From an uncultured Spirochaetales bacterium (lineage in GTDB: Bacteria; Spirochaetota; Spirochaetia; Sphaerochaetales; Sphaerochaetaceae): a stretch of DNA of 47,185 nt. Below the pieces are notes generated by a model. The model was not told the origin of the DNA and searched no databases. It worked only from the letters and a program-made list of their open reading frames with translations. Shown piece by piece: positions 9,827 through 44,143 of this stretch. The stretch's first letter is position 1; every line of letters begins with the position of its first letter. The position numbers and the translations under genes were made by a program. Location: positions 1-47,185 of the forward strand of contig CAMEXG010000001.1 of NCBI GenBank assembly GCA_945947045.1, given 5' to 3'.

Positions 9827-9845
9827 CGTTTTTCATGTTTCCATG

Positions 9846-9871
9846 GCCCTGTACCGTTGCAGGGCTTTTTT
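9846..9871 (+). terminator. rho-independent terminator after the TauE/SafE gene
   Basis: Stem GCCCTG / CAGGGC, 8-nt loop, then TTTTTT. Confidence 0.8.
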
Positions 9872-9910
9872 ATTTCACAAAAATAACATTAGTGATAAAA
9901 TAATATAGTT

Positions 9911-11032: not shown

Positions 11033-11040
11033 GAAAAACT

Positions 11041-16635: not shown

Positions 16636-16662
16636 AAAAAGCACGGGGATACAAGATCCCCG
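16636..16662 (-). terminator. rho-independent terminator ending the ABC/sulfatase operon
   Basis: Stem CGGGGAT / ATCCCCG with a 5-nt loop, followed on the minus strand by UGCUUUUUCC. Starts 5 nt after the sulfatase stop. Confidence 0.8.
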
Positions 16663-20090: not shown

Positions 20091-20102
20091 TATATCTTCT
20101 CC

Positions 20103-20960: not shown

Positions 20961-21931
20961 TAGTTAGCCCCCTTCTTGACTGCAACTTTTTTCTTGCCCT
21001 TATTCTGATACTGAGCCTTTATTCTTGGGTCTACAGCCGCATAAAGCATATCTACGAGAAGCATGCTGAACGAGAAGACGATAGCCAAGAAGATTGTTCC
21101 TGTCTGAACAACAGGATAGTCTCTGTTGTTAACAGCTGTGATGATAAGTGTACCCATGCCAGGGATAGAGAAGATTGTCTCGATGATCATCGCACCGCCA
21201 AGCATCTTTCCAAACTGTGTTCCCATCATTGTAATAATAGGAATCAAAGCATTCTTAAGAGCATGCTTGATAATTACTTTATTCTCTGGTACACCCTTCG
21301 CTCTGGCTGTTGTAATATAATCAGATCTGATGACATCTAGCATACTGGATCTGGACTGACGAGCTGCAGATGCAATATGGGTAGCGGAAGCTGAAATTGC
21401 AGGAAGAATGTAGTATTGTATACCACCGATACCAAGGGCAGGAAGCCATTTGAGTTTTACAGCAAAAAGAATAACCAACAACAAAGCAAGCCAGAAGTTT
21501 GGCATTGATACTCCGACGAGAGCCAAAACCATACACAAAGAGTCCTGCCATCTATTTTGATGTACTGCAGCAATGACGCCAAGAGGCACACCGATTGCAA
21601 AAGAAAGAATCAATGTTATACCTGAAAGCATCATAGTTCTTGGAAGTCTTTCAACAATAGAGTCTGCAATAGGAATTCCGGTTCTCCATGCCACTCCAAG
21701 ATTAAAATGAATAAATGTATCGCTTAAAAATCTTGCCAATCTGACAAAATATGGATCATTTAGGCCCAATTCTTCTCGTTTTGCTTCCAAAGCCTCTTCC
21801 GTCGCTTCTGAACCCAAAATAATCTCAGCAGGATCACCAGGACAATATGTCATTAAAGTAAAAACAACAATGGCGACAGCTAGAATAATCGGAATCATCC
21901 AAAGTAAACGCTTTAGAAAATATCTAAGCAT
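20960..21931 (-). CDS. ABC transporter permease, OppB/DppB type
   Basis: MLRYFLKRLL N-terminus typical of OppB. I place the start at Met11 of the track ORF because AGGAGG lies 7 nt upstream. Confidence 0.9.
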   Translation of the reverse strand: MLRYFLKRLLWMIPIILAVAIVVFTLMTYCPGDPAEIILGSEATEEALEAKREELGLNDPYFVRLARFLSDTFIHFNLGVAWRTGIPIADSIVERLPRTMMLSGITLILSFAIGVPLGVIAAVHQNRWQDSLCMVLALVGVSMPNFWLALLLVILFAVKLKWLPALGIGGIQYYILPAISASATHIASAARQSRSSMLDVIRSDYITTARAKGVPENKVIIKHALKNALIPIITMMGTQFGKMLGGAMIIETIFSIPGMGTLIITAVNNRDYPVVQTGTIFLAIVFSFSMLLVDMLYAAVDPRIKAQYQNKGKKKVAVKKGAN

Positions 21932-21998
21932 TAGTACTCCTCCTTTTTTGTTTCCTTGCATAGATTGCCCTGCATATAGCAGGACAATCTAGTTTTTA

Positions 21999-23582
21999 TC
22001 AGTTGTATATGCAGGCTGTAGGAACTACCATGTTAATGTTGTCATTTACAACTTCCTTGATTCCAACCTTATTGTTCCATACTGCAAGGTTATTAAGCTG
22101 GTACATTCCATATCCGTAAGCTTCTTCCTTGATGTAGTTATGAACCTTGTTAATATTTTCAGGTGTGAATCCCTTCACTGTTGAAGCCTCTGCAATCATG
22201 TCTGCAAGTACATAGTCATGTCTACTTGTAGCGTCACCAGTCTTGTAGGATCTGCAGTCATATCTTGTATTCCAGTGGTTTGCAAGTGTGATGCCACCGA
22301 CCTGGTTAATGAACATATCGTACTGTGTTCCATCAAGTCTAATAGCTGTAACAAGGGCAACTTGTCTCAAATCAAGCTTGATGTTGATGCCAACGGCAGC
22401 ACAGCAGTTCTGAATGATTTCTGCAACAGTCTTTGTTGTTGAGGAACCAAGAAGAACGAGTTCTTCTCCCTTGTAGTTAGACTTAGCGAGACATTCCTTA
22501 GCCTTTTCTACGTTATAAGGATAGTATTCCTCGTCGAGCCACTCTTTTTGGTAACCCATAGCATAAGTAGCTGCAGAGTCATGCATTACTGTTCCATATC
22601 CTTCGAGGGCGGCGTCAATCATCAACTGGTTATTGATGGCATAACAGATTGCCTGTCTAAGATATTTGTCTTCTGCAACAGGTTTTCCTTCTGCCCCTGA
22701 GAAGAAGATCTGCATACCGTTTCTTGCATCTGCTCTCTGGAGTGTATAATCACTGTCACCATCAAACTGTACTGCAGTTGAAGCTGGGAAGTTGAGGACA
22801 AAATCTACTACACCTGTCTCAAGTGCGATGCCAAGCTGGGCAGCTTCTGGAATAATATGGACTTTAACATTGTCCACAGTCGCCCTCAGCTGCTCAGGAA
22901 GGAGATTATAATCCTGCCAGTAGTCATCTCTCTTTGTATATTCCATAGAAGAGCCGGAAACAAAACCTGTTACCTTGTAAACGCTAGTTGTTACACAGCT
23001 GTTCACATAATCATCACCAGCCTTCTCATATTCAGCCTTTGAACAGACAAGAGTATCTGTCATGAATGTTTCGAATACACCTACAAGAGTATTGTTGAAC
23101 TTAACTCTTACAGAATAGTCGCCTGTAGCTTCGATGGATTCAACATACTTGTAGTTTGGCTTAAGAGCTTTTTCTTTTGATGTCTCGACAACCCAAACAA
23201 TATCTTCGGATGTAATCTTGTTACCTTTGCTATCTGTAATGTAGTCCCAGATAGTAATATCGTATGTTACACCGTTATCTTCTGTCTTCCATTCCTTTGC
23301 AATCCATGGAACAAGGGTATTTGAACCATCAAGATAGCCGAGAGACTCATAAGTAATAGTAGAAATTACAGGAAGATTGTTTCCGATGTTGGATCTGAAT
23401 GGAGAGAGTGTATCCCAACCAGTGTTGATACCAACATTGATTTCAATCTTTTTCTTCTCTGCAGTCTTTGTGCTTGTTTCAGTAGCAGTTCCTGATGTAG
23501 AACTGGTCTTCGATTCGCTCTTTCCACATGAAACAAAAAGCATGAGAACAGCCAAAAGAAGCACGAAAATAATCTTTTTCAT
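21999..23582 (-). CDS. family 5 (peptide/nickel/oligosaccharide) ABC substrate-binding lipoprotein
   Basis: Lipobox LMLFVSC-G followed by a Ser/Thr-rich linker. 527 aa, SBP_bac_5-like. AGGAG RBS. Confidence 0.85.
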   Translation of the reverse strand: MKKIIFVLLLAVLMLFVSCGKSESKTSSTSGTATETSTKTAEKKKIEINVGINTGWDTLSPFRSNIGNNLPVISTITYESLGYLDGSNTLVPWIAKEWKTEDNGVTYDITIWDYITDSKGNKITSEDIVWVVETSKEKALKPNYKYVESIEATGDYSVRVKFNNTLVGVFETFMTDTLVCSKAEYEKAGDDYVNSCVTTSVYKVTGFVSGSSMEYTKRDDYWQDYNLLPEQLRATVDNVKVHIIPEAAQLGIALETGVVDFVLNFPASTAVQFDGDSDYTLQRADARNGMQIFFSGAEGKPVAEDKYLRQAICYAINNQLMIDAALEGYGTVMHDSAATYAMGYQKEWLDEEYYPYNVEKAKECLAKSNYKGEELVLLGSSTTKTVAEIIQNCCAAVGINIKLDLRQVALVTAIRLDGTQYDMFINQVGGITLANHWNTRYDCRSYKTGDATSRHDYVLADMIAEASTVKGFTPENINKVHNYIKEEAYGYGMYQLNNLAVWNNKVGIKEVVNDNINMVVPTACIYN

Positions 23583-23752: not shown

Positions 23753-25381
23753 TTAATTCTGTTTTTCCCTTGCTCTTCTTACCATTTGGCCAAGCATCAT
23801 GCCACCCAATCCCTCTTCGTATCGTCTGAAGATTTCTTTTTTTACATCTTCATCCAAACCTCTTGTCATAGCCTCCACCTGGGCTCTTTTTATCCTATTG
23901 TCGACTTTCCTAGGTACAATATCACAAGTGGACTGATACCAATCCAACATATCAAGTTTCATCTTCATGATTTGGTCTTTGTAGAGAGGATTATCTATTT
24001 CATTCTTCTCCTCTTTTATATCTTTCTCCAAATCATAGAATTCATCTTTATTGTTAGCCCTCTTTATATACTTATACCTATGGTCTCTGATCATTGTACC
24101 CTTTATATGGGCTTCACCGTTGGTCTGGGAAATCTGCTTGGGCCAATAATCACTTTCTTCAGGAATACTTCCGCCTTTTCCACAGACCCCATGGTACTCG
24201 TCAGCCTGCCATTCATACTCCATTCTTCCACCTTCAGAGAAGACATATTTCCTATTCTCGATCTTCCTATCTTCAACAATAGGTCTGAGAGATATTCCGA
24301 ATTGATCATGATCAGGCTCTACGCCGACATAATCCATGACTGTCCTATAGAAATCCACTAGTTCTACTAGGCTATCGGAGATACCTGGATCCACTTTCTC
24401 ACCCTTTGGAGGTTTGATGAGCAAAGGCACTCTTACAAGACAGTCTTCGAATGTATTTTGGGATTTCTCAGGAAGAGAATAATCTCCACAGAAATCTCCA
24501 TGGTCAGATAGAACGACTATGAGAGTGTCATCATAGACACCTTTTTCCTTAAGACCGTCGCATAGTCTCTTAAACTGTGCATCGATTTTCATGCACATTC
24601 CAAGATACACAGCCCTCAGCTCGTCCCAGTCCTTTTCCTCCATCTGGTCGATTCCCATATGGGATCTCAGTTCTTCCTGCATTAAAGGCTTACCTTCACC
24701 CTTTGATGCCCTCTTTGGCAGTTTTTTTCTATCTATGGCTGAGAAATATGGCTTCTCAACTCCATAAGGGCAGTGAGGATAGAAAAGGCCAAGGAAAGCG
24801 ACCACAGGTTTTCCTCCATGGTCCTCCCCCATCATCTCTATGCATCTATCTACGTCGCTGTCATCGGAAGTATAATTAATACCTTCATTATTGACTGTCA
24901 GCTCTCCCAGATAGTGGGAATAGAAGAATTTATCGCCTTTTTTACCTCTTATATTTGATATAACAGGTTTATTATGATCAGTAGCCATTACTCTAGGATC
25001 TGTCTTCCCTGAGTGGATTTCATCAGCTTGTGATTCATACAACCCTGGAATCTGCCCCGCAACAAGATCGTTACGGTCATTCATCCAAACATAGTATCCT
25101 GCATTCTTTAATTCAGTGAACAGATTCGACTCATCCTCATGAAGAAGATGCTGCATAGTTCTATGTCCTTTGACATGAGGATACAAACCAGTAAAAAAAG
25201 AACAGCGAGATGGAACGCATACAGGGTTCTGGCAGTATGCATTTGAAAATGACACAGCCTCTTTCGATGCAAACTCATCAAGATTAGGAGTGATTGCAGC
25301 TGGATTTGCTCCCATATGATAAAGCGCATCCCACCTCATCTCATCTGGGTTAAATATTACAACATTCGGTCTTTTTTCCAT
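23753..25381 (-). CDS. Cys-type sulfatase, no signal peptide
   Basis: Signature PVCVPSRCSFFTG. I place the start at Met9 of the track ORF (MEKRPNVVIF) because GGAG is 5 nt upstream of it and it begins 2 nt after the GH3 stop. Confidence 0.85.
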   Translation of the reverse strand: MEKRPNVVIFNPDEMRWDALYHMGANPAAITPNLDEFASKEAVSFSNAYCQNPVCVPSRCSFFTGLYPHVKGHRTMQHLLHEDESNLFTELKNAGYYVWMNDRNDLVAGQIPGLYESQADEIHSGKTDPRVMATDHNKPVISNIRGKKGDKFFYSHYLGELTVNNEGINYTSDDSDVDRCIEMMGEDHGGKPVVAFLGLFYPHCPYGVEKPYFSAIDRKKLPKRASKGEGKPLMQEELRSHMGIDQMEEKDWDELRAVYLGMCMKIDAQFKRLCDGLKEKGVYDDTLIVVLSDHGDFCGDYSLPEKSQNTFEDCLVRVPLLIKPPKGEKVDPGISDSLVELVDFYRTVMDYVGVEPDHDQFGISLRPIVEDRKIENRKYVFSEGGRMEYEWQADEYHGVCGKGGSIPEESDYWPKQISQTNGEAHIKGTMIRDHRYKYIKRANNKDEFYDLEKDIKEEKNEIDNPLYKDQIMKMKLDMLDWYQSTCDIVPRKVDNRIKRAQVEAMTRGLDEDVKKEIFRRYEEGLGGMMLGQMVRRAREKQN

Positions 25382-25383
25382 TT

Positions 25384-27801
25384 TTACTCCACGCTTACAG
25401 GACATGTATATACACGGTTATCTTTTACACACTTCTTTTCACCGATTATCTTTACCTCTCCAACTACACTATATGTTCCGGAAGACTGACCTACCATGAT
25501 ATTAAGAGTTCCAGGTTCAACTGCAAACTCCATGTTTTCATTATAGTAACCAAGCTGTCTCATTGAGAGATGGAAGGTTACTTTTTTAGTTTCACCCTTC
25601 TCCAATGTTATTCGCTTAAAGCCCTTAAGTTCCTGAACCGGTCTTGTAACGCACACGTTCTTTACTCTTGTATAAAGCTGTACAACTTCGTCTCCTTTAA
25701 CATTTCCTGTATTCTTCACTTCTACAGTAATGTCTACATCTCCATCAGCTTCAACTTCTTTTCTACTTAAAACCAAGTTGGATATGTCGAAAGTAGTGTA
25801 TGAGAGACCATATCCGAATGGATAAAGAGGCGAATCATCCGAGTCTACATAACCTCCCTTTAAAAGTCCTACAATTGGTTCTCTTACATAACCTGAACCC
25901 GAACGATGATTATAGAAAATAGGAATCTGTCCCTCATTTCTAGGAATTGAGAATGTCATCTTTCCTCCAGGGTTTACACTTCCATCCAATACATCTGCCA
26001 CTACTTTTCCTGCATATTGCCCCGGCATATATGCTTCAATAATTGCAGACGCATGCTCAGAAGCATAAGGAGTAGAGAATATCTGAGGTCCATACATTAT
26101 TACTACTACAGGCTTATTTGTAGCAATAAGGCTTTCAAGTAGTTCTTCCTGAACACCTGGAAGCGTTATTTTTGTCCTATCTATTCCCTCTCCTCCTGTT
26201 ACATTTACCCAACCGCAGTTTCCTCCGCAGGCAAATACGACAACATCATTTTCTTCCGCAGTTTTTATGGCAGAAGCGAAATGAGACTTGTCATCTCCCG
26301 TGATTTCGCAACCCTTTTCATAGGAGACGGAGAATCTTTCTGATAGGACTTCTTTCAAGCTTCTGGCATCAAGTCCTCTAAGGACACCGTCCATGTCACC
26401 AAGTTTTTTCAGTTCCTCTTCTGTATAGATGGCCATCATCTTGGCAAAAGGATTGTTGTCATTCTTCTTGTTATTGTCGGCAAGATCAGCCATACCTCCA
26501 ATGCCGACGTTCTCACCTCTGCTACCTGCCTCCATCATTTCAATATATGCAGGATATGTATATCCAGACACCGGATATCTAATGGAATCTGCATGAGGAC
26601 CAATGAGGGCTACCTTGACACCTTTCTTAAGAGGAAGAACTCCATCGTTTTTCAACAAAACGAGAGAATCTGCTGCGATTTTTTCTGAGAGATCATCTTT
26701 TTCCTTTGTTCTGAAGGTATCTTTTATACTACTTTCATCACAATAAGGGTTCTCAAATAGGCCGCACTTAAATTTTACATACAATACTCTTCTTACTGAT
26801 TCATTTATGCACTCTTCTGTGATAAATCCACTCTTAACATACTCTGGGAGTTGTCTGAAAGCTGCACCAACAGGAATCTCAGTATCAGTTCCTGCTTTTT
26901 TTGCAATTGCTCCGGCTTCTTTGTAACTAGATCCGATTTTATATACATTATATGTTCTGAGGACAGCAGCTCCATCGGAAGTGACGACTCCTTTAAAGCC
27001 CATCTCTTCTCTCAATAGCTTTCCTATGATTTCAGGGTTGTCAATTACTGGAAGGCCATCAATCTCACCATAGTTACACATTACAGCATCCAGATCTTCT
27101 TCCTTCATGGCTGTTTCAAAGGGAAGAGCGAAATCTTCATATAACTCTCTATGACCGCAACGGAAAATAGAAGTATTTAGACCACCTTGGGTGAATGCGT
27201 AACCTAAAAAGTGCTTGGCAATACAGCTGACTTTTTTACTCTGCATTCCTCCGATATATTCTTTTCCAAATTGGGATACTAAATATGGATCCTCTCCATA
27301 TGTTTCATATGTTCTACCCCATCTAGGATCTCTTGCCACATCGATTACAGGGCTCATAGCAGATGAGATTCCTACACTTCTTGATTCTTCGCCAATATAT
27401 TCAGCCATTTCTCTAGCTAATTCCGGTTCCCAAGTAGAACCTAGATTTATCTGGGAGGGATAAAGGGAGCCACCTTTTCCCGGATAACCACAGAGGTTTT
27501 CACTTTGTAAAGCAACAGGGATGCCTAGTCTTGTCTCTTCTACAAAATATCGCTGGACTTCATTTGCTATTTTTGCAATGTAATGTGGATCTGTAATTCC
27601 TGCTGTAGAGAACTGAGTGAATCTTCCGTGTCCGTTAGGAAACTGTTTCTTAAGTTCTTCTTTACTTACTTCACCATTGACTATGACGGTTGGAACAAGG
27701 TCTCCACAAAGCTGGGCCACCTTCTCCTCCAGTGTCATTTTTGAGAGCAAATCCTCTACTCTTTCCTTAATAGGCAAAGATGCATCCTTGTATTTGTCCA
27801 T
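25384..27801 (-). CDS. glycoside hydrolase family 3 (BglX-type beta-glucosidase/xylosidase-like), cytoplasmic
   Basis: 805 aa. LTLEEKVAQL start, KHFLGY motif, GFKGVVTSDG nucleophile region, C-terminal FnIII-like domain. No signal peptide. Confidence 0.88.
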   Translation of the reverse strand: MDKYKDASLPIKERVEDLLSKMTLEEKVAQLCGDLVPTVIVNGEVSKEELKKQFPNGHGRFTQFSTAGITDPHYIAKIANEVQRYFVEETRLGIPVALQSENLCGYPGKGGSLYPSQINLGSTWEPELAREMAEYIGEESRSVGISSAMSPVIDVARDPRWGRTYETYGEDPYLVSQFGKEYIGGMQSKKVSCIAKHFLGYAFTQGGLNTSIFRCGHRELYEDFALPFETAMKEEDLDAVMCNYGEIDGLPVIDNPEIIGKLLREEMGFKGVVTSDGAAVLRTYNVYKIGSSYKEAGAIAKKAGTDTEIPVGAAFRQLPEYVKSGFITEECINESVRRVLYVKFKCGLFENPYCDESSIKDTFRTKEKDDLSEKIAADSLVLLKNDGVLPLKKGVKVALIGPHADSIRYPVSGYTYPAYIEMMEAGSRGENVGIGGMADLADNNKKNDNNPFAKMMAIYTEEELKKLGDMDGVLRGLDARSLKEVLSERFSVSYEKGCEITGDDKSHFASAIKTAEENDVVVFACGGNCGWVNVTGGEGIDRTKITLPGVQEELLESLIATNKPVVVIMYGPQIFSTPYASEHASAIIEAYMPGQYAGKVVADVLDGSVNPGGKMTFSIPRNEGQIPIFYNHRSGSGYVREPIVGLLKGGYVDSDDSPLYPFGYGLSYTTFDISNLVLSRKEVEADGDVDITVEVKNTGNVKGDEVVQLYTRVKNVCVTRPVQELKGFKRITLEKGETKKVTFHLSMRQLGYYNENMEFAVEPGTLNIMVGQSSGTYSVVGEVKIIGEKKCVKDNRVYTCPVSVE

Positions 27802-27843: not shown

Positions 27844-29109
27844 TTATTTTCCTAAAAGCTTAAACATGTCCTTCTTATAGTCTTCAACACCATTCTGATC
27901 AAAAGGATTTACTCCTGTGATATTGCATGAAACATAGCAGGCCATCTGGAAGAAATAGAAAAGAGCGCCATAAGTCTCTTCATCGAAACGAGGAATCTCC
28001 AAAACAAGGCATGGGAATCTTCTTGAGTGAGCGGCAAGAGTTGCGTTAAATGCAGCTTTATTGATTTCCCAAAAATCTTTTCCATCAAGATATTTGAAGC
28101 CATCTTCCAATTCATCACTTGGAAGCGGACAAGTAGATTCTCTTTCCGTTACATTCAAAAACGTCTCGAAAAGCATTGGGGAACCATCCTGGACAAACTG
28201 TCCTAAAGAATGCAGATCCTCACTATATGAAGTATCCATCGGCAATAAGCCCTTATCTTCCTTTCCTTCACTTTCACCGAAAAGCTGTTTCCACCACTTT
28301 GCAAATCTAAAGAATCTGGGTTCGAAATAAGAAAGAAGTTCTACACTCTTCCCTTTTTCTTTTAGCATAGTGCGCATTGTGGCATATTCGAGGGCGACAT
28401 TTAATATTGAATGATCGCTTTTGAGTCTACTCTCCATATCTTTTGCACCCTTAACCATAGCTTTAATATCAAAACCTGCAACAGCAAGAGGGAAAAGACA
28501 GATGGGAGAGAGCGCCGTATATCTACCGCCAATATTCGAAGGGAAAGGAAGAAGTGTATAACCCTCCTTTTCAGCCATATTCCAGGAAGGCGTATTCTCT
28601 GTAAAAGTAACGATTACTCTTGAAGAGTAACTATCCCCATATCTTTTATCCAAGAAGTTCCTGATAACTCTGAAAGCAATACCAGGCTCCAATGTCTCAA
28701 AGTTTTTGGCGATACAATCCACATAGACGCTTTTCTTGTTCTCCAAAGATTTTAATACTTCGTTCATTGAATATGGGCTTATAGTATTTCCTGCCCATAT
28801 TATTTCAACATCATTCTTCCGTCCCAATGCCTCGTATACAGCTCTGGCTGCCTGGTTTGAACCGCCAATACCTATGACAACCAAGGCATCTGCATCTTTC
28901 CTTACTCTTAAGGCAGTCTCTTCATACTTTTCCAGCCATTCTTCTCCAGCCCAAAGAGATACATTGTGCCAACCGAGAGTATCTTTATACTTCTCCTCTC
29001 CTTTCAGAGCTCTATCTAGGGAAGGAAGGTTTCTTTCTAGTCTTGCTTTATATTCCTCTTTCCCGATTAATCCCGAATTATCTACATACTTAAAGTTTAT
29101 ATCCGTCAT
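27844..29109 (-). CDS. glucose-6-phosphate isomerase family protein (short Firmicute-type PGI), with an atypical phosphate loop
   Basis: GIGGS, IGGRYTALSP, WWKQLFGESEGK, DLHSLGQ and NPFDQNGVEDYKK signatures are present. The canonical SKSGTT/SKTFTT loop reads AKNFET. Confidence 0.8.
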   Translation of the reverse strand: MTDINFKYVDNSGLIGKEEYKARLERNLPSLDRALKGEEKYKDTLGWHNVSLWAGEEWLEKYEETALRVRKDADALVVIGIGGSNQAARAVYEALGRKNDVEIIWAGNTISPYSMNEVLKSLENKKSVYVDCIAKNFETLEPGIAFRVIRNFLDKRYGDSYSSRVIVTFTENTPSWNMAEKEGYTLLPFPSNIGGRYTALSPICLFPLAVAGFDIKAMVKGAKDMESRLKSDHSILNVALEYATMRTMLKEKGKSVELLSYFEPRFFRFAKWWKQLFGESEGKEDKGLLPMDTSYSEDLHSLGQFVQDGSPMLFETFLNVTERESTCPLPSDELEDGFKYLDGKDFWEINKAAFNATLAAHSRRFPCLVLEIPRFDEETYGALFYFFQMACYVSCNITGVNPFDQNGVEDYKKDMFKLLGK

Positions 29110-29993
29110 AGAGACGCTCCTTTTACTTGATAGTTTTCTTTGATTATTTCTATAACCTTAGCAACATACTTCTCATTTTCCGGAACATTGGAGTTTAAGA
29201 ATGCATGCCAAAGATCTTTATCGATAAAATAAGAATGTAGAATTCCATCCCTATTTAGTATTTCATCCAGCTTATCGCTATGATTTTTCAATATCTCTTT
29301 TTCTGATGCAAATAGCGCTACAAATGGAAACCCAAAATAGTCGCCCAGCACAGGATATGCATATGGATCATCACAATCCGCTGTGATGTAATACTCATAT
29401 TTCTCACCCGTTCTATAGTCCAGAATAGCATCATTATCTATTTGGTATTGCGTGGGCTCTATCCCTTCTCCAATATATGGAGAGGAAAGAATAAGGGAGG
29501 ACGGAAGATAAATACCATGGTCCCTGCACCATAGAGACAACGACAAAGCTATGGTTCCACCTGCGCTCGTTCCAATGATACTCGACTCTCCCGGATCGAC
29601 TCCCCATTCCAATAGTTTTCTCCAGACTTTTACACAATCCATAAAGGCTGCAGGATATGTATCCTCAGGTGCAAGTGAATAGTTGATTCCATAAATAGTC
29701 ATTCCTAGATTTCTTGCTATCTGAGTGCAAAGCCAATATCCATTCGAAGCATATCCGTTTTTAAAACCTCCACCATGAATATAAACAAGGGCGGAAGACG
29801 ATCTTGAATTGGGAAAAGTAATTTTTTCTGTTTCAACACCTTTTATATTAAGTAGAGTCTTCTCAGCATCTTCCGGAAGCTTAGAGGCTCTTTTTTTCTG
29901 ATTCTCCCTCATCTCTTCCAGAGTAGACTTACTCCTCAATTTCTTTATTTCCCTAAGTCTCTCTTCATATTTCTGTCCTATTTCTCCAAGCAT
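29106..29993 (-). CDS. alpha/beta-hydrolase esterase (HSL/deacetylase-like)
   Basis: Oxyanion motif HGGGF, nucleophile elbow GTSAGG, distal DLWHAF. 4-nt overlap with the PGI-like start. Confidence 0.75.
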   Translation of the reverse strand: MLGEIGQKYEERLREIKKLRSKSTLEEMRENQKKRASKLPEDAEKTLLNIKGVETEKITFPNSRSSSALVYIHGGGFKNGYASNGYWLCTQIARNLGMTIYGINYSLAPEDTYPAAFMDCVKVWRKLLEWGVDPGESSIIGTSAGGTIALSLSLWCRDHGIYLPSSLILSSPYIGEGIEPTQYQIDNDAILDYRTGEKYEYYITADCDDPYAYPVLGDYFGFPFVALFASEKEILKNHSDKLDEILNRDGILHSYFIDKDLWHAFLNSNVPENEKYVAKVIEIIKENYQVKGASL

Positions 29994-30003
29994 AAGACCA
30001 ACC

Positions 30004-31476
30004 TCAGACGCCTCTTTTGTTTCTACCGCTCTTCCATGGGTTTCTCACGTTTCTGTAGTTCATGGACTCATTACCCACTGTCTTCATCTTTTCAATAAAT
30101 GCAGCTTTGGCTTCTTCGATACGTTTGTCATAAGCCTCGGTATGATATTTCTCCAGGAGAGGATCCTTATATTTTTCCATATAAGAGTTTAGAATGCTTC
30201 TCATCTTCGCTATCTCTTCCTGATACTCAGGATCATCAATAAGATTACACAAAGCATCCGGATCCTTCTCAAAATCATAGAATTCTTCAGGGACTCTATA
30301 CTGGAAGAAGTCCACTCTTTCTTTTATTTCTTTATTCTCTTCCCCCGCCTTCACCATGGCATTAAAGGTAAGACCAGTCTGAGCCTCATTCTTAAAAACT
30401 TTCTCTCCATCGGACCATGCATTGAAGATATATCCATATCTCTTGTTTTGTACGCATCTCATAGGGTAAGAATTAAAAGCAGAAGTAAGGTTAAACTGTG
30501 TATATACATAACCATCTCTACTATCATCTTTCTTTCCTTCAAGAATACTAAGGTAACTCTTTCCGTCACACTTCATCTTATCTTCCAATCCACAAGCTTG
30601 GAGAACTGTAGGAGTAAAATCTACTCCACTTATTAGATCTGTATTATTTCTTGTTCCTGCAGCGATATGTCCAGGCCACTTGGCGATAAAAGGAGTCTTT
30701 GTAGAGTTCAAGTAACAGTTTGCCTTGGCAAATGGGAATGCCATACCATTATCAGACATGAAAATAACCAGTGTTTCGTCTTCGAGACCTGCTTCTTTCA
30801 ATGAATCCAATACTGCGCCCATAGACTGGTCTCCCCTATGGACTGAAGAATAATACTGTGCAAGTTCTTTTCTTACGTCTGGTAAATCAGGAAGGAATCC
30901 AGGCACCCATGCTTCTTCACTCTTATAGAATCTATCGGCATAGATATGGTAGCCATAGAATTTTTTAACTTCATCGTCGCTTCCTGCGAAAGGTCTATGT
31001 GGATCATGGGTATTAGCCATCAAGAAAAAAGGCTTTCCTGATTCTTTTGCCATTTCGAAGAACTCTTTGGACCTGGACCTATATAAATCAGGGCTTCTAC
31101 CGTAATTTGATTCAGGCTCCATCATTCTTGAGGCATAATCCCACGCAAATTTTTCCATTGGTACGGCATGCTTCAGTTTTCCGATAATTCCATTGAAGTA
31201 TCCATTTTCCTTAAGGGTCTCCGTGAGAGTAGGAATCTCGGAAGAAATGGGCATAAAACCAGGGGCACCGTTTTTATGAGGATATAATCCTGTCAGGAGA
31301 CACTCCCTCGAAGGCTGGCATACAGCGATAGTAACGTGGGCATTGTCAAAACATACACCTTCAGATGCAAGCTTGTCCAAGTTTGGTGTTATGTCATCTA
31401 CAGGGCATCCGAAACAACCGATAGAGTTGTAATTCAAATCATCCGCCATTAATAGAAGGATATTGGGTCTTGTCAT
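30004..31476 (-). CDS. Cys-type sulfatase, no signal peptide
   Basis: NILLLMADDL metal-site N-terminus, signature AVCQPSRECLLTG. AGGAG RBS at 31483-31487. Confidence 0.9.
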   Translation of the reverse strand: MTRPNILLLMADDLNYNSIGCFGCPVDDITPNLDKLASEGVCFDNAHVTIAVCQPSRECLLTGLYPHKNGAPGFMPISSEIPTLTETLKENGYFNGIIGKLKHAVPMEKFAWDYASRMMEPESNYGRSPDLYRSRSKEFFEMAKESGKPFFLMANTHDPHRPFAGSDDEVKKFYGYHIYADRFYKSEEAWVPGFLPDLPDVRKELAQYYSSVHRGDQSMGAVLDSLKEAGLEDETLVIFMSDNGMAFPFAKANCYLNSTKTPFIAKWPGHIAAGTRNNTDLISGVDFTPTVLQACGLEDKMKCDGKSYLSILEGKKDDSRDGYVYTQFNLTSAFNSYPMRCVQNKRYGYIFNAWSDGEKVFKNEAQTGLTFNAMVKAGEENKEIKERVDFFQYRVPEEFYDFEKDPDALCNLIDDPEYQEEIAKMRSILNSYMEKYKDPLLEKYHTEAYDKRIEEAKAAFIEKMKTVGNESMNYRNVRNPWKSGRNKRGV

Positions 31477-31624: not shown

Positions 31625-32119
31625 TTAGATATCAAGCATACCGATGTTATATTTCTCCACCGGTTTTGAGTAGAACCATTGAAGATCCATCAATCGATCT
31701 TTAGTGAACTTCAGATAGATCTTGTCTTTTGGCGGCCACTTTAGCATCATGTCAAATCTTTTGTCGTCATCTAGTTTTTCCGGAGAAAAAATCAAATAAA
31801 GAGTTCCACATTTCTTCGTATTATTTCTGTTCAGTACCTTTGATCCTATTACATCTACTTCAGCAATTTCGTTCCAAGGAATATATCGCCTCCTGATGCC
31901 TAAGAACGAGAGAGAAACGCCAACCTTTTCCACTTTTACTACACTTCCATATCTAAATACGATTGCGAGGAAAGGAATTGAAATCAGAAGAAATACAAGA
32001 GCTGATATATATCTTGATATAGTGCAGAGGGTAATTGATATGGCAATAAGAAAGAGAAAGTATAATAAAGCGAACATGAACATCGTATCGTTTGCCAAGT
32101 ATTTCTTACCTTTTCCCAT
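31625..32119 (-). CDS. small membrane protein: two TM helices plus a beta-rich cytoplasmic domain (bacterial PH/YdbS-like?)
   Basis: 164 aa. Hydrophobic segments at roughly residues 13-33 and 38-56. Starts 3 nt after the ROK stop. No recognisable catalytic motif. Confidence 0.45.
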   Translation of the reverse strand: MGKGKKYLANDTMFMFALLYFLFLIAISITLCTISRYISALVFLLISIPFLAIVFRYGSVVKVEKVGVSLSFLGIRRRYIPWNEIAEVDVIGSKVLNRNNTKKCGTLYLIFSPEKLDDDKRFDMMLKWPPKDKIYLKFTKDRLMDLQWFYSKPVEKYNIGMLDI

Positions 32120-32122
32120 ACA

Positions 32123-33349
32123 CTACTCCAAAAAAGACTCCAAATCTCTCTTTATTGCTACTGCAGAAGCCCCAACAGCTCCACTTAGATCATCACTGCT
32201 TTTGAAATGAAGTTTCAAGTCCTGGAATGTTCCTCGATACAGATTCTTGTAAACCACATTCATAAGAACTTTTCTATTTTCCTCCACATCAAAGATCTTT
32301 CCTTCTATAACCATATACTCAGGTCTTACAAAATTCTCAATGTTTGCAATTGCAAGCCCCAGGTATCTAATAGCTTTGAATATAATTTTCTTTACCTCTT
32401 CATCTCCTTTTTCTGAAGCTTCAAGTACATCCGCAATATCCAAGAACTGCTTTTTCTCATAGATTGAAGACAGAACAGGAGTTTTCCCTTCCTTCATAGC
32501 TTTATTAGCCTTTTCAATGATAGTCTTTTCACTGGAGTAAGCTTCAAGACACCCCCTATTTCCACATAGACATGGATCTCCGTCTATTTCCATGATCATG
32601 TGACCTACCTCTCCGTCTCCAGTAACATTCCCGAAGTGGGTCTTCACAGAATTAAGTAAAGGGCATCCGATTCCTGCAGAGACAAACATATACGCCATCG
32701 AATCCGCATCTTCCAATACTTTCCCCTCAAACATAACCAAGGCATATGCTCTTGCAATAGTATTGTTTTCAACACTTACCATGCCCTTATATCCGGTAAG
32801 AGACGAAAAGTCTTCCATTACATTTTTATCTTTCCATTTATATCCCGGATGGATGATAAGTCTTCCCTCTTCTTTATCTACGATTCCCGGCATGGTAAGA
32901 CCAACTCCGAAGATGTCTTCCTGGATTAAATTTGCCTTTTTCAAAAGGGAAGAAAACAAATCTGCTGCACTTTTTATGGAGGCTTCATAGTCAGAGAAAG
33001 AACGCTCATCTCTAAGCGAAGCCAATACGTGGCCCCTTGTATCCACAATCACGCCATTTCTTACGGTTCCTCTTATTGCTATTCCCATAAATCTTCTGGA
33101 GTTTTCATTGATATCCACAAGCATTGTTCTTCTTCCCAAGCTCTTTACACTATGATCCTGTTCAACTTCTTTCAAAAGTCCATTCTTTATCATGGAGCTT
33201 ACGCTGGTAGTTATAGTAGGAAGAGTAAGACCTAACCTATCTGCTATCTCTATTCTTGAAATAGGACCAAATTTATAGACAATTTCCTTAATTGAAAACT
33301 GGTTTTGTACTTTTACTCTGGGTAGGTTGTTTCCTATGGAATTCTCCAT
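32123..33349 (-). CDS. ROK-family transcriptional repressor (XylR/NagC-like)
   Basis: 408 aa. wHTH (ISRIEIADRLGLTLPTITTSVSSMIKNGLL) and ROK zinc motif CLCGNRGCLE. Confidence 0.85.
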   Translation of the reverse strand: MENSIGNNLPRVKVQNQFSIKEIVYKFGPISRIEIADRLGLTLPTITTSVSSMIKNGLLKEVEQDHSVKSLGRRTMLVDINENSRRFMGIAIRGTVRNGVIVDTRGHVLASLRDERSFSDYEASIKSAADLFSSLLKKANLIQEDIFGVGLTMPGIVDKEEGRLIIHPGYKWKDKNVMEDFSSLTGYKGMVSVENNTIARAYALVMFEGKVLEDADSMAYMFVSAGIGCPLLNSVKTHFGNVTGDGEVGHMIMEIDGDPCLCGNRGCLEAYSSEKTIIEKANKAMKEGKTPVLSSIYEKKQFLDIADVLEASEKGDEEVKKIIFKAIRYLGLAIANIENFVRPEYMVIEGKIFDVEENRKVLMNVVYKNLYRGTFQDLKLHFKSSDDLSGAVGASAVAIKRDLESFLE

Positions 33350-33449
33350 TCAATATATCCTTTTGGCAATATTAGTCTTAATAATGAAATTATATATGCC
33401 ATTTTGGTATATATCATCAATTAATTTTTTAATTTAATGAATATTATTC

Positions 33450-34130
33450 TTACCTTCTTATAGGCGGAAATAAGTGTTCTATCCCCAGCTCCTTCACCAT
33501 CTTAACGACTTCCGTCGATCTCGATACTCCGAACTTCTGAAGCAGAGTTCTTATCTGGCTCTTGACCGTAGCAGGCTCAACGAACCTTCTCTCGGCTATT
33601 TCCCTTACCTTCAAACCTTCCATAAAACATGAGATCAGCTCTTTTTCTGCTGGAGTCAGATTGCCTAGGTTCTGTATGAAATACAAGAGGTTTTTCTCAC
33701 TCTTACGTAGTCTTTTATATTCATCCATCAAGACTTTCTGTATTTCACTGTCAATCTGTGCATTGCCTTCCTTTGCCATTCTGACTTTCTTTCTCAGTGT
33801 CTCTTCGTCGCAGCCTTTGACCACATAATCCAGGGCACCGTTTGACATGGCTTTTACAATGGTCTCATCACTATCATGGCTAGTGAGATAAAGAATGACA
33901 GCATCATTATCGCTGGAAAGAATCGCATCTGCAGCCCTTATCCCATCCTCGTTATCAGCCATCTCAATGTCCATTAAGACTACATCGTACTTTTCTTTCT
34001 CATATTCCATCTCAGCTTCAATTCCAGTGGAACACTCTTTTATTACTAGAATATCTCCCTCTTTTTCCAAAGCTTCCTTTATATATGTCCTGATTACTTC
34101 ACTGTCTTCAGCCAACATTACTCTAATCAC
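33450..34130 (-). CDS. response regulator, NarL/LuxR family
   Basis: REC domain (DVVLMDIEM phospho-Asp region) plus a C-terminal LuxR HTH (LTPAEKELISCF...VKSQIRTLLQKFGV). Confidence 0.9.
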   Translation of the reverse strand: MIRVMLAEDSEVIRTYIKEALEKEGDILVIKECSTGIEAEMEYEKEKYDVVLMDIEMADNEDGIRAADAILSSDNDAVILYLTSHDSDETIVKAMSNGALDYVVKGCDEETLRKKVRMAKEGNAQIDSEIQKVLMDEYKRLRKSEKNLLYFIQNLGNLTPAEKELISCFMEGLKVREIAERRFVEPATVKSQIRTLLQKFGVSRSTEVVKMVKELGIEHLFPPIRR

Positions 34131-35602
34131 TTTCTTCCCTCCCCTGCCAAAGGCAACATCACGATAAAGGAAGTTCCCCCATCCCTACGTGGTGTAAATG
34201 AAATAGACCCCAAGTGCCTTTTTATTACAAGCCTGGTGAAATACATACCGATTCCCCAGTTAGTAGAACTATTCTTGGAAGAATGGAAAGGCTCCCAAAG
34301 ATGCTTTTTTAATTTCCTATCTATACCCTTTCCTCTATCACTAAAAATAATCTCGACCCACATTCGTCCATATTTGACCTGTATCTCTATGGGATCATGC
34401 CGTTTATTATCAAGCGTTGCTTCTATTCCGTTTTGTATAATGTTATATAAAGCCTCTGAAAGAAAGGTTGTATCTGCAAGAATGAGTTTTGTAGTTTCTT
34501 CGGTATCGACATTAATCTGGTAATTGCAGAAATTCTCTCTTACTCTCTTCTTACACTCTTCTATTACATCCATCATTGAAGCTGGACGAAGTCTTATTGA
34601 GTTTACTTTGAGAGATTTATTTAGCTTCTCCAACCTTGTCACAAGAGAAGCGTTGATCTGTGATAGTCTCTCGATATCACCATCCTCAGGGTAATTTTTC
34701 TTTACTTTATCTAGGAGGATACGTGTAGCCAACAAGTCATTCTTTGTTCCATGAACAAACATGGATACTCCTCTAGCTGTGGAACTGACCTCTCTTCTTA
34801 TTTTTACTTCCGCCACCTCCTCTCCAAATGTAATTGAGAAATACCTGATAAGAGAGGCCATGGACAGGATACCAGATAGCAAAGCTCCTATCATGACTAC
34901 ATAGTTGAAGCCTGATGAGAATCCTCTATGTAGATACCATAGACCAAGCATCCACATATAATCGTTTCTATAGAAAAGATAAACTTGGGCAGGATCCTGA
35001 GGAAAGAAAAGACCATAGATCATTACGAGAGAAAGAATGATCATGAATTTCATAATAAATCTCAATCTGAAGAAAGAGAGCTTGGTACCCCATAGTTCGA
35101 TGATCATCATGAGAATAGACATGGCTAAATAAAGAATAATCCATATTTTTGTAACAGTGACTACAATCCCCATTGCAGTGGGATTTGAAGAGAATGTCTC
35201 AAAGAACTGGGGGATATAAATAAGTATACCCATCAATGGGAGGATAAATAACAACAATCCTTTTTTTATTAAATTACTCTTATTCAGCTTTCCAGCCATA
35301 TTCAAAGATGAGAGCAAAAGAAAATAAGGAGAAAGATATCTTCCTATAGCCATCATGAATCCAAGTCTATTCATTGTGAAGACTTGATACATAAGCTTTT
35401 GTCTAACCCGATTGTTTCCATAGAGGACAAAGGTTGTAAAGTCTGTTATTCCTCCTTTTTTGGCTATATATACAGAAATTGTATAAAGGAAAAAAGTTAT
35501 TGATCCCACTGCCAAGAAAAGAAGGGCGCTTCTTAAATCACGTCTCAACAAAAGAAGAGCAAAAGACATAAAAAGTGTTATCAATAACAATACTGGGAGC
35601 AT
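34127..35602 (-). CDS. polytopic membrane sensor histidine kinase
   Basis: About 260-aa N-terminal domain with about 7 TM segments, H-box-like FVHGTKNDL, HATPase N/G boxes (NIIQNGIEA, DRGKGI, GIGM). ATGA overlap with the regulator. The exact start is uncertain (no SD). Confidence 0.8.
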   Translation of the reverse strand: MLPVLLLITLFMSFALLLLRRDLRSALLFLAVGSITFFLYTISVYIAKKGGITDFTTFVLYGNNRVRQKLMYQVFTMNRLGFMMAIGRYLSPYFLLLSSLNMAGKLNKSNLIKKGLLLFILPLMGILIYIPQFFETFSSNPTAMGIVVTVTKIWIILYLAMSILMMIIELWGTKLSFFRLRFIMKFMIILSLVMIYGLFFPQDPAQVYLFYRNDYMWMLGLWYLHRGFSSGFNYVVMIGALLSGILSMASLIRYFSITFGEEVAEVKIRREVSSTARGVSMFVHGTKNDLLATRILLDKVKKNYPEDGDIERLSQINASLVTRLEKLNKSLKVNSIRLRPASMMDVIEECKKRVRENFCNYQINVDTEETTKLILADTTFLSEALYNIIQNGIEATLDNKRHDPIEIQVKYGRMWVEIIFSDRGKGIDRKLKKHLWEPFHSSKNSSTNWGIGMYFTRLVIKRHLGSISFTPRRDGGTSFIVMLPLAGEGRK

Positions 35603-35723: not shown

Positions 35724-36725
35724 TTAGTTGTGTGCAGCTTCAAGCATGATGTCAAAGAGGACGTAGTTCTCAACTGGAGTTGTAGGATCAACTGCATCAC
35801 CGAATGCAAGCTTCTGAACTTCATAGAGAGCCTTGATAGAACCATCTTTGATTCCGTTGATTGTATCTGCTTCTGTATACCACTTTGCACCATGGACTGT
35901 CTGATACTGAATCTCAACGTCACCTGCAACCTGCTTAGCAACCCATTCAGCAACCTGTCTCATGTTCTCTTCCTTTGCTCTGAAGTCTTCACCCTTATAG
36001 AGTGCTCTTGTGAACTTGACAAGTGTATCGTGGTTAGCTTCAGCCCACTTTGGCATGACGATCCAAGAAGCGATGTTGACTGTCTCGTCAGAGAATGTTT
36101 CGTTTCTAGCGATTACAACAGCATCGGAACCGATCTGAGAGCACATTGTTTCTGTTGATGGTGACCATGTAGCACATGCATCGAGAGAACCAGATGTCAT
36201 AGCAGATGTGAGAGAAGAAGCATCCATTTCGTAAGCTGTGATGTCATTCATAGTGAGTCCAGCTTTCTTAAGACCGAGCATGAGGATGTTCTCTGAAGAT
36301 GTTCCTGAAGAATAACCGACTTTCTTTCCTCTGAGGTCAGCGAGAGATTCTACACCATGAGACTTGAGACCGACGATAGCGTCACCGTTTCCAAGGTGAG
36401 AGAATGCGAAGATGGAAGCACGACCATTGATACAAAGCTTATGAGCGCCATGTCCGATGTATCCGATATCGATAGAGCCGGATTCCATAGCAGCGATGAT
36501 AGTAGGACCGTCTGCGAATTCAACAAGGTTAACCTTGAGGCCTTCTTCTTCGAAAGCGCCTGTCTCAATTGCAGCCATTACGGAGCAGAGAGATGCATAG
36601 TTTGGCATATATGCAACGTTGAGAGTCTTGAGAGAAGAAGTTGTTGCCTTTTCTTCTGCTCCCTGAGCGAAAATGCCTGTAAGAGCGATGACTGCTACCA
36701 AAAGAATAGCGATTGCCTTTTTCAT
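35724..36725 (-). CDS. NitT/TauT-family (NMT1/SsuA-like) ABC substrate-binding protein
   Basis: Signal peptide MKKAIAILLVAVIALTGIFAQG. 333 aa with an SsuA/ThiY-like pattern. Confidence 0.8.
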   Translation of the reverse strand: MKKAIAILLVAVIALTGIFAQGAEEKATTSSLKTLNVAYMPNYASLCSVMAAIETGAFEEEGLKVNLVEFADGPTIIAAMESGSIDIGYIGHGAHKLCINGRASIFAFSHLGNGDAIVGLKSHGVESLADLRGKKVGYSSGTSSENILMLGLKKAGLTMNDITAYEMDASSLTSAMTSGSLDACATWSPSTETMCSQIGSDAVVIARNETFSDETVNIASWIVMPKWAEANHDTLVKFTRALYKGEDFRAKEENMRQVAEWVAKQVAGDVEIQYQTVHGAKWYTEADTINGIKDGSIKALYEVQKLAFGDAVDPTTPVENYVLFDIMLEAAHN

Positions 36726-36765
36726 TTTATATCTCCTTTTTTTGTTTTCAAAAATGTGGTTCCGA

Positions 36766-44134: not shown

Positions 44135-44143
44135 CCAAAGCTC

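Follow-up and report, generated by a model that had tools for sequence, protein, structure and literature searches.

The window analyzed here is a 47,185-nucleotide stretch from an uncultured Spirochaetales bacterium (assembly GCA_945947045.1, contig CAMEXG010000001.1, positions 1 to 47,185), and one of its open reading frames (ORFs), on the minus strand at 27844..29109, encodes a paralogue of phosphoglucose isomerase (PGI). This PGI paralogue belongs to a catalytically intact clade with an altered phosphate pocket, and it is inherited together with similarly altered paralogues of NagB, triosephosphate isomerase (TIM), and aldolase. We consider it highly probable that the protein is not the housekeeping PGI and works within this module. 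Due to its sub-cut-off equivalog score, its membership in a separate monophyletic clade, and its occurrence in inducible catabolic clusters rather than housekeeping contexts, glucose 6-phosphate (G6P) is very probably not its physiological substrate.

The ORF encodes 421 amino acids from ATG to stop. Its sole Pfam match was the PGI family (PF00342), which it hit with 65.6 bits (cut-off, 22; E=4.6e-18). The likeness to short bacterial PGIs that the original prediction had seen by eye extends over the full length, as HMMER aligned the protein end to end with the solved short PGIs 1B0Z (Geobacillus; E=8.5e-91), 3FF1 (Staphylococcus aureus; E=3.5e-89), and 3IFS (E=6.3e-86). An AlphaFold2 model built on 40 clade members (predicted local distance difference test [pLDDT] 93.1, predicted template modeling score [pTM] 0.93) has the two-domain PGI fold, with template modeling (TM) scores of 0.93-0.95 to 3FF1, 3IFS, 1C7R, and 2PGI in Foldseek. 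The catalytic residues R196 (GGRY), E279 (GESEGK), H300 (DLHSLGQ), and K412 (FDQNGVEDYKK), all listed in the original prediction, are present, invariant across the clade, and identical to those of solved PGIs. Q275, Q405, and E141, which are sugar-site residues of other PGIs, are also kept, as are S84 and T139. The chemistry at C1 and C2 would be unchanged, with Glu as the base, Arg as the enediolate clamp, and His/Lys for ring opening. The protein scored 396 bits against the NCBIfam Bacillus-type PGI equivalog NF010697, below its curated cut-off of 443, and was far under the cut-offs of the remaining PGI equivalog models. Its homologues are named glucose-6-phosphate isomerase in public annotation. 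Membership in the AGE (YihS, PF07221) or FucI (SqvD, PF02952) family was not found.

The original prediction held that the phosphate-binding loop had been rewritten from SKSGTT to AKNFET, and profile alignment to solved PGIs bears this out. The loop region is ungapped (nvISKSGTTtEPaiAFRi against dcIAKNFETlEPgiAFRv), and the HMMER alignments to 1B0Z and 3FF1 are gap-free across the loop, which rules out mis-registration. On these alignments, we read the protein as a PGI-family enzyme whose catalytic residues are intact and whose phosphate loop is truly rewritten. In the substrate complex of the Bdellovibrio PGI (BbPGI), the phosphoryl group is held by the hydroxyls of S72, S118, S120, and T123 and by the backbone N of K119 and S120 (PMC8354745). 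We mapped these ligand positions onto the PGI paralogue by motif. S72 (S84 in the paralogue) and T123 (T139) are kept, S118 is lost (A134), and S120 is changed (N136), such that two of the four hydroxyls for 6-phosphate binding are replaced. At the induced-fit position, Gly is found in short PGIs and Phe in most large ones (PMC8354745), and the PGI paralogue has Phe there (F137).

The claim that the new loop argues against a 6-phosphate handle is thus partly supported. The direction was right, and the loss of hydroxyl ligands (S118 to A134, S120 to N136) stands, but the argument from the newly introduced Glu fails. E138 aligns to BbPGI position 122, which is not a ligand, and in the wider clade described below this position is variable (E, K, Q, R, N, A, T); Glu138 was therefore dropped as a key determinant. 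A comparison of 117 clade members with two solved short PGIs revealed further clade-invariant changes: Y85N and L86Q directly behind the GIGGS serine, T140L, S265R, Y268R, and E271K in the helix running to the catalytic Glu, and T296S and T297E immediately ahead of the catalytic His. Within the wider clade, Asp136 was found solely with Arg86 (4/4), and 25 of 27 representatives have K,R271/E297 in place of the canonical pair E271/T297. This covariation suggests that D136-R86 and K/R271-E297 are internal pairs rather than acidic groups facing the ligand. We set aside the Asp136 variants as an argument against an anionic ligand, since Asp136 always occurs with Arg86. The pocket appears to be relined with the amide side chains N85, Q86, and N136 around a retained helix-dipole/backbone anion hole, S84, and T139.

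Compared with the Bacillus-type short PGIs (Geobacillus stearothermophilus 1B0Z/2PGI/1C7R and S. aureus 3FF1), the PGI paralogue has the same fold, 37-39% identity, the catalytic Glu/His/Lys/Arg, the sugar-binding Gln, and the same length class. It differs in the phosphate tetrad (S/S/S/T to S/A/N/T), the first loop (GGSYL to GGSNQ), the induced-fit position (Gly to Phe), and the E271/T297 pair (to K/R271 and E297), and in forming a separate monophyletic clade with a catabolic, not housekeeping, context.

These changes are shared widely among relatives. Among the 120 best database matches (52-100% identity; Spirochaetales, Herbinix, and Clostridia metagenome-assembled genomes [MAGs]), AKNFET was exact in 117, and the first loop was of the GGSNQ type in all. 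The conservation of AKNFET places the substitution well beyond chance drift. A wider search of 1.84 billion 50%-identity representatives yielded an AK group of ~28 representatives with 36-53% identity, compared with ~120 canonical sequences carrying S-K-S-G-[T/S]-T. The signature of the wider group is A-K-N/D-F-x-T, GGSN, [S/T]-E-[D/E]-L-H, and K/R271, and its common residues are A134, N/D136, F137, N85, E297, and K/R271. In a neighbor-joining tree with the twelve signature columns masked, 26 full-length AK sequences fell into one clade of 27, whose odd member is a chimeric sequence. The best explanation is that the AK type is a distinct, horizontally mobile paralogue clade. One representative, P0160 (415 amino acids), matches the aldolase paralogue in its N-terminal part (..KKGARNIAE.., ..SALPFEENV..) and is an AK-type PGI in its C-terminal part. 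Either the two genes are fused or the assembly is chimeric, and the sequence mirrors the aldolase-then-PGI gene order of loci L013 and L015.

We then sorted loci by PGI loop type, searched them with the window proteins, and de-duplicated them, leaving 15 AK-type and 68 canonical loci for Fisher tests. Genes for a LarA-like enzyme and a TIM-like protein were each present in 7/15 AK-type and 0/68 canonical loci (p=1.6e-6 for each). Fructose-bisphosphate (FBP) aldolase-like genes (FBA-like; 66-75% identity) and TauA-type binding proteins each occurred in 6/15 against 0/68 (p=1.3e-5 for each), and NagB-like (57-66% identity) and glycoside hydrolase family 3 (GH3) genes each in 5/15 against 0/68 (p=1.0e-4 for each). 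Sulfatases (4/15 against 0/68; p=7.4e-4) and TauE (3/15 against 0/68; p=5.0e-3) were likewise confined to AK-type loci, and phosphofructokinase (PFK)-like genes were found in 6/15 AK-type and 4/68 canonical loci (p=1.8e-3). A scan of species-representative genomes added at least ~12 new clade loci; a second search pattern drew mostly canonical PGIs. Among the scan matches listed, clade loci came from Solobacterium, Lachnospiraceae, Enterocloster bolteae, Enorma massiliensis, Hungatella, other Bacillota, Bacteroides, and Spirochaetaceae.

The gene content of individual loci is consistent with these counts. The Hungatella locus L013 contains, in a single run, PFK-like, TIM-like, LarA-like, NagB-like, FBA-like, and PGI-like genes, TauC, TauB, TauA, a kinase, a regulator, NagA, and TauE. 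In L001 (Herbinix), the PGI paralogue lies beside TIM-like and LarA-like genes, and in L003-L006 it lies beside Opp-type transporters, GH3, sulfatases, TauE, and radical S-adenosylmethionine (SAM) enzymes of the anaerobic sulfatase-maturating (anSME) type. Close spirochaete relatives keep the window gene order, and one of them has a TauABC-type importer, TauE, and a mutarotase immediately upstream. TauE is present in the window, L003, L013, L015, and L086.

Three side observations concern these loci. The TIM paralogue adjoins the LarA-like gene wherever both occur (the window at 11860-14186 on the minus strand, L001, L007, L009, L010, and L013). Identity across phyla is 70-75% for the LarA-like protein and only 45-57% for the PGI paralogue, which suggests horizontal spread and a much tighter constraint on the nickel-pincer enzyme. 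Finally, in L018 (Spirochaetaceae MAG, 419-20494), a variant with an AKDFNT loop lies beside a protein resembling type I phosphomannose isomerase (PMI) and a second NagB-like protein; this locus also carries a PIG-L deacetylase, a radical SAM protein, a GFO/IDH/MocA oxidoreductase, a PfkB kinase, and a mannitol-dehydrogenase-like gene. Given this gene content, the module may accept several epimers.

The PFK-, aldolase-, TIM-, NagB-, and LarA-like genes of the same supercluster were overlooked in the original prediction, and several of their products have changes that parallel those of the PGI paralogue. The TIM paralogue scored only 88 bits, where the TIM equivalog models have cut-offs of 130-880. 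Its catalytic Asn/Lys (LNLK), His/Glu (GHCEE), and the Glu with loop 6 (YEPVWSIGPG) are retained, and its phosphate gripper is changed from YGGS to YGGG in loop 7 and from GGAS to ALTR in loop 8 (GGLIGGASLK to GGLIALTRFK), with a gain of Arg. Five other genomes encode orthologues in which the segment GGLIALTRFxGEIGFYPEEY is identical. The NagB paralogue keeps NMDEY and GHxAFNE; in it, PTGSSP has become PVG-P, the Arg of ANSRFF (R172) is replaced, and the Lys equivalent to K208 is His. We take the changed positions to be phosphate ligands of the E. coli NagB structure. The NagB changes are conserved in orthologues (the partner rewrites recur in five or six other genomes). The aldolase paralogue scored 249 bits against a cut-off of 511, has a conserved ~18-amino-acid insertion behind ILQGA, and keeps both C6-phosphate arginines of class II FBP aldolases (NVDTDIR, FDPR). 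The PFK paralogue passes the cut-off of the PRK14072 subfamily of pyrophosphate-dependent PFKs (PPi-PFKs), and its closest structures are the PPi-PFKs 3K2Q and 3HNO. Collectively, the motifs of the PGI, NagB, and TIM paralogues indicate the same pattern, in which the catalytic residues are intact and the grip on the distal phosphate is rewritten.

The LarA-like protein links the window to a module that has already been recognized but not characterized. It matched the structure PDB 9Q3J with E=2.9e-247 and 9Q2U/9Q3K with E=1.2e-237. These structures are of single-histidine LarA homologues, LarA_Bw of Blautia wexlerae and LarA_Sp of Streptococcus plurextorum, described by Gatreddi et al. in 2025 (PMC12611868). 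The genes neighboring LarA_Bw and LarA_Sp are annotated as 'glucose-6-phosphate isomerase', PPi-PFK, TIM, FBP aldolase, glucosamine-6-phosphate (GlcN6P) isomerase, and aldose 1-epimerase, and the authors assigned no function to the single-histidine homologues, proposing only 'carbohydrate metabolism' (PMC12611868). All six annotations are also present in the window. While that study takes the neighbors as ordinary glycolytic enzymes, we find co-inherited paralogues with rewritten distal-phosphate sites. The association of the module with TauABC/TauE and, in the window lineage, with sulfatases, GH3, and an Opp importer also goes beyond PMC12611868. What is new is therefore the co-inheritance of specialized paralogues, their common change at the distal-phosphate site, the sulfonate-family importer, and, in some lineages, the sulfatases.

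What sugar would such a module handle? A sulfo-sugar, either a sulfate ester or a sulfonate, is in our estimate the somewhat more probable kind of substrate. Our best explanation, which we put forward tentatively, is that the PGI paralogue is an isomerase for a hexose with a non-phosphate anionic group at C6, likeliest glucose-6-O-sulfate/fructose-6-O-sulfate; this agrees with the 6-sulfo-hexose named in the original prediction. An anionic group is still likely because the backbone/helix anion hole, S84, and T139 are retained and the new side chains are amide donors, and because the aldolase paralogue keeps two Arg, the TIM-like and NagB-like proteins gain Arg or His, and the PGI-like protein gains K/R271. 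A sulfo group is favored by the TauABC-type importer in the module, a member of the sulfonate/taurine/nitrate family, by TauE, by the association with sulfatases and anSMEs (anSME genes are present in related loci), and by the natural isosterism of sulfate and phosphate esters. Fructose 6-sulfate is known to serve PFK as an alternative substrate. An O-sulfate is favored over a C-sulfonate because NagA and the NagB paralogue imply an amino sugar, 6-O-sulfo-N-acetylglucosamine (6-O-sulfo-GlcNAc) being a common 6-sulfoGlcNAcase product, and because sulfatases are present and no sulfoquinovosidase, sulfolactaldehyde (SLA) reductase, or SLA dehydrogenase was found among the annotated ORFs of the window and loci L007, L009, L010, L013, L015, and L018.

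We infer the identity of the C6 group and each of the following steps. A sulfated glycoside or sugar would enter through the Opp-type and TauABC-type ATP-binding cassette (ABC) systems, and GH3, the esterase, and the Cys-type sulfatases would then trim it in the cytoplasm. The PGI paralogue would convert the 6-sulfo-aldose to the ketose and, in parallel, the same ketose would arise from a 6-sulfo-N-acetylhexosamine, with NagA removing the acetyl group and the NagB paralogue the amino group. The PPi-PFK paralogue would then phosphorylate the ketose at C1, and the class II aldolase paralogue would cleave the ketose 1-phosphate to dihydroxyacetone phosphate and a C3 sulfo-aldehyde. This C3 fragment would be processed by the always-adjacent TIM paralogue and the LarA-like nickel-pincer enzyme, and a sulfur-bearing end product or sulfate would exit via TauE or be released by the choline-sulfatase-like sulfatase. 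The pathway, in effect a 'shadow glycolysis', would handle hexoses and N-acetylhexosamines in which a mimic of the C6 phosphate blocks ordinary 6-phosphorylation.

A related known physiology is the use of 6-O-sulfo-GlcNAc by gut bacteria, which involves GH20/GH185 6-sulfoGlcNAcases and cross-feeding (PMC10570127); the likely common nutrient is 6-O-sulfated host-glycan sugars. The sugar is released by dedicated bacterial glycosidases, one of which is cytoplasmic in a Firmicute (PMC10570127). The known systems and the window module are alike in cytoplasmic processing after import. In the known route, however, desulfation comes first and is followed by ordinary NagA/NagB and glycolysis, whereas in the window module the sulfo group would persist through the isomerase, kinase, and aldolase steps. 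The glycosulfatase cluster of Bifidobacterium breve is an example of sulfatase-dependent use of 6-O-sulfo-GlcNAc. Our literature search, which had subscription-only work outside its scope, found no paper on fructose-6-sulfate, glyceraldehyde-3-sulfate, a C3-sulfate pathway, or a PGI-type sulfosugar isomerase. A bolder version of the proposal, which we regard as doubtful as a whole, is that gut and rumen bacteria of several phyla have a complete, mobile 'sulfate-ester glycolysis' of 6-O-sulfated glucose and N-acetylhexosamine. In it, the sulfate would stay attached through paralogues of NagA, NagB, PGI, PPi-PFK, aldolase, and TIM, and the C3 sulfate ester would be resolved by the TIM paralogue and the LarA-like enzyme, possibly by enediolate-driven elimination of sulfate and then hydride-shuttle conversion of a 2-oxo-aldehyde.

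Several points weigh against a C6 sulfate ester. No sulfatase was found within 10 kb in several Clostridia module loci (L008-L011, L013, and L015), such that the ester there would have to be exported or eliminated. Binding proteins of the NitT/TauT family and permeases of the TauE family also take ligands without sulfur, there is no obvious natural source of a beta-linked glucose-6-sulfate on which a BglX-type GH3 could act, and no clear rewrite was found in the PFK paralogue. The pocket geometry and the placement of K/R271 and E297 are drawn from sequence and covariation. In addition, LarA_Sp held an unidentified 316.5-Da ligand that the authors modeled as a phosphorylated nine-carbon sugar (PMC12611868). 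As an idea only, a sulfated sugar would fit the 316.5-Da mass equally, since the groups added in a phosphate and a sulfate ester are only ~0.01 Da apart.

The ligand of the LarA-like partner is also among the observations that would fit a sugar with a neutral or different distal end, such as an unphosphorylated hexose after full desulfation, a 6-deoxy or 6-amino sugar, a C4 epimer (a galactose/tagatose derivative), or a longer-chain sugar, with the sulfur-related neighbors being coincidental or acting only upstream. The pocket loses a hydroxyl donor and gains possible hydrogen-bond acceptors (N/D136 and E297), the NagB-like protein lacks both cationic phosphate ligands, sulfatases are missing from many module loci, and the PMI-like gene in L018 suggests that several epimers are handled. 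We nonetheless consider such a substrate unlikely. The pairing of D136 with R86 and of E297 with K/R271 suggests internal salt bridges rather than free acceptors, the anion-binding Arg residues are kept in the aldolase paralogue (two) and gained in the TIM-like protein (one), and the importer family is atypical for neutral sugars. Moreover, a kinase could phosphorylate a neutral hexose, which would make a parallel pathway needless. That the protein is instead an ordinary glucose-6-phosphate isomerase with tolerated loop variation, feeding glucose released by GH3 into normal glycolysis, is very improbable. Its catalytic apparatus is complete, its PGI fold is confident, two of the four hydroxyl ligands remain together with the backbone amides, and public annotation gives its homologues this name. 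However, the score falls under the curated equivalog cut-off, the signature does not vary across a deep, monophyletic clade that stands apart from canonical enzymes, canonical loci lack LarA-, TIM-, NagB-, and TauA-type partners (0/68 for each), and the partner enzymes have parallel rewrites of the phosphate grip.

The remaining alternative retains a sulfo-sugar but places a C-sulfonate at C6. The PGI paralogue would then be a sulfoquinovose (SQ)/sulfofructose isomerase, and the module a third and non-orthologous form of the Embden-Meyerhof-Parnas route of sulfoglycolysis (sulfo-EMP), with the C3 sulfonate exported or desulfonated. The concept resembles sulfo-EMP2 (SqvD, SqiK, and SqiA; Liu et al. 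2021, reviewed in PMC9594981), in which an isomerase, a kinase, and an aldolase act on a hexose with a sulfo group in place of the C6 phosphate. The kinase (PF00365) and class II aldolase (PF01116) genes of the window, at 14196-15353 and 15353-16510, belong to the Pfam families of SqiK and SqiA and adjoin each other as expected beside such an isomerase. The window and some loci also have TauE, a TauABC-type importer, and an aldose 1-epimerase of PF01263, to which the SQ mutarotase YihR belongs. On the other hand, the known SQ isomerases are YihS, of the AGE family (PF07221), and SqvD, of the FucI family (PF02952) (PMC9594981), whereas the window isomerase is of the PGI family; reviews from 2022 and 2026 give only AGE- and FucI-type enzymes, and neither lists a PGI-type SQ isomerase. 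The sulfonate pocket of the characterized sulfofructose-phosphate aldolase SqiA, in which one C6-anion Arg (inter-subunit) is replaced by Ala, is not seen in the aldolase paralogue, which keeps the FDPR Arg along with that of NVDTDIR. Neither a GH31/GH188 sulfoquinovosidase nor an SLA reductase/dehydrogenase was present in the window or the annotated loci listed above. Furthermore, NagA and NagB paralogues would be of no use in SQ catabolism, and sulfatases cannot cleave C-S bonds; relative to sulfo-EMP2, the window module adds NagA, NagB-like, TIM-like, and LarA-like steps as well as sulfatases. We therefore judge a C-sulfonate substrate to be quite improbable.

If the assignment of a C6 sulfate ester holds, the classical enzymes of glycolysis were copied together and adapted to another anionic sugar at one common feature, the distal phosphate grip, and paralogy at the level of a pathway would be unusually clear here. 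A new route for the use of sulfated glycans of host or dietary origin would also be added in Clostridia, Erysipelotrichia, Coriobacteriia, Bacteroidales, and Spirochaetes; module-bearing groups include the common human gut genera Enterocloster, Hungatella, and Blautia. A sulfate-ester glycolysis, if true, would allow sulfatase-independent use of host sulfated glycans and give a physiological role to the orphan single-histidine LarA subfamily. The proposal also offers concrete candidate substrates for the LarA-like nickel-pincer enzymes, which have had solved structures since 2025 but no assigned function. The paralogues are systematically misannotated as glucose-6-phosphate isomerase, triosephosphate isomerase, FBP aldolase, and glucosamine-6-phosphate deaminase, and this inflates apparent glycolytic capacity in metagenome-based metabolic models.

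In the window, the PGI paralogue is part of one co-directional gene string on the minus strand, running from 41842 down to 11860. The string begins with the NagB paralogue, NagA, a DUF3604/PHP-like hydrolase, and a TauABC-type importer (permease, ATPase, and NMT1-like binding protein), followed by a histidine kinase, a response regulator, a ROK regulator, a 164-amino-acid membrane protein, sulfatase 3, and an esterase. The PGI paralogue, GH3, sulfatase 2, an SBP_bac_5 lipoprotein with OppBCDF, and sulfatase 1 come next, and the string ends with the class II aldolase, PPi-PFK, and TIM paralogues and the LarA-like protein. Gaps between genes are mostly -22 to 42 nt, with three of 148-170 nt. The original prediction had correctly placed the PGI gene between an esterase and a GH3 glycosidase among sulfatase genes: the Abhydrolase_3 esterase lies upstream, GH3 downstream, and all three sulfatases are co-directional. 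GH3 adjoins or lies near the PGI paralogue in many loci. Coordinates are listed in the table.

Table. Genes of the window in and next to the gene string of the PGI paralogue.
Feature	Coordinates	Strand	Remarks
NagA and divergent NagB paralogue	39903..41842	-	NagA passes TIGR00221 cut-off
DUF3604 / CehA-McbA-like PHP metallohydrolase	38413-39906	-	Between TauABC-type importer and NagA
TauABC/NitT-type ABC importer	35724..38324	-	NMT1-like substrate-binding protein, ATPase, permease; module importer in Clostridia loci
Regulators and small protein	31625..35602	-	Histidine kinase, LuxR-type response regulator, ROK/HTH regulator, conserved 164-amino-acid membrane protein
Cys-type sulfatase 3 (CQPSR)	30004..31476	-	Closest solved structures SGSH / S1_8; no signal peptide
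Abhydrolase_3 esterase	29106..29993	-	4-nt overlap with start of PGI-like gene
AK-type PGI paralogue	27844..29109	-	Loop IAKNFETLEP; first loop GIGGSNQAAR; catalytic R196, E279, H300, K412 kept
BglX-type GH3 glycosidase, cytoplasmic	25384..27801	-	GH3 N and C domains and Fn3-like domain
Cys-type sulfatase 2 (CVPSR)	23753..25405	-	No signal peptide; 60-64% identity, beside GH3 in other loci
Opp-type ABC importer	18135..23582	-	SBP_bac_5 lipoprotein, two permeases, two ATPases
Cys-type sulfatase 1 (CVPAR)	16667..18130	-	Closest solved relative choline-O-sulfatase, E=7e-53
Class II FBP-aldolase paralogue, divergent	15353..16510	-	~18-amino-acid insertion; C6-anion arginines kept (NVDTDIR, FDPR)
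PPi-type phosphofructokinase paralogue, PRK14072 subfamily	14196..15353	-	GGNDS, PKTMDND motifs
TIM paralogue, divergent	13350..14186	-	Catalytic N, K, H, E kept; loops 7 and 8 changed
LarA-like nickel-pincer-nucleotide enzyme, single-histidine subfamily	11860..13353	-	PDB 9Q3J, 9Q2U matches
TauE/SafE-family exporter, ROK protein, aldose 1-epimerase	9041..11796	+	Divergent, adjoining module

All three sulfatases have the Cys-type motif C-x-P-x-R and no signal peptide, GH3 likewise has no signal peptide, and SBP_bac_5 has a lipobox, which points to import of the sulfated substrate and its processing in the cytoplasm. We rejected assigning sulfatase specificities from solved structures, as the matches (choline sulfatase, exo-2S-iota-carrageenan sulfatase, and SGSH/S1_8) are distant and not diagnostic. 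The DUF3604 / CehA-McbA-like gene was not found in the Clostridia module loci. Shuffled sequences gave more promoter-like matches than the real sequence, and these matches are therefore uninformative. The stop codon of sulfatase 1 is directly followed by a GC-rich hairpin with a T-tract (16644-16662, minus strand), and this terminator-like element probably divides the Opp/sulfatase unit from the aldolase-PFK-TIM-LarA unit.

In close spirochaete relatives, the Abhydrolase_3 esterase is truncated (174 amino acids) or split (158 + 104 amino acids; L086 9401-9925 and L087 9193-9983), and the enzyme therefore seems dispensable. XdhC-like, YqeC-like, and apolipoprotein N-acyltransferase genes at 41902-45817 on the minus strand lie beyond the cluster and appear unrelated to it. 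Two more ROK-family proteins are encoded at 9911-11032 and 45882-47108. The 164-amino-acid predicted membrane protein (31625-32119, minus strand) has no Pfam or NCBIfam match and is kept with 36-43% identity beside GH3/Opp/PGI-like genes in L001, L004-L006, L086, and L087.

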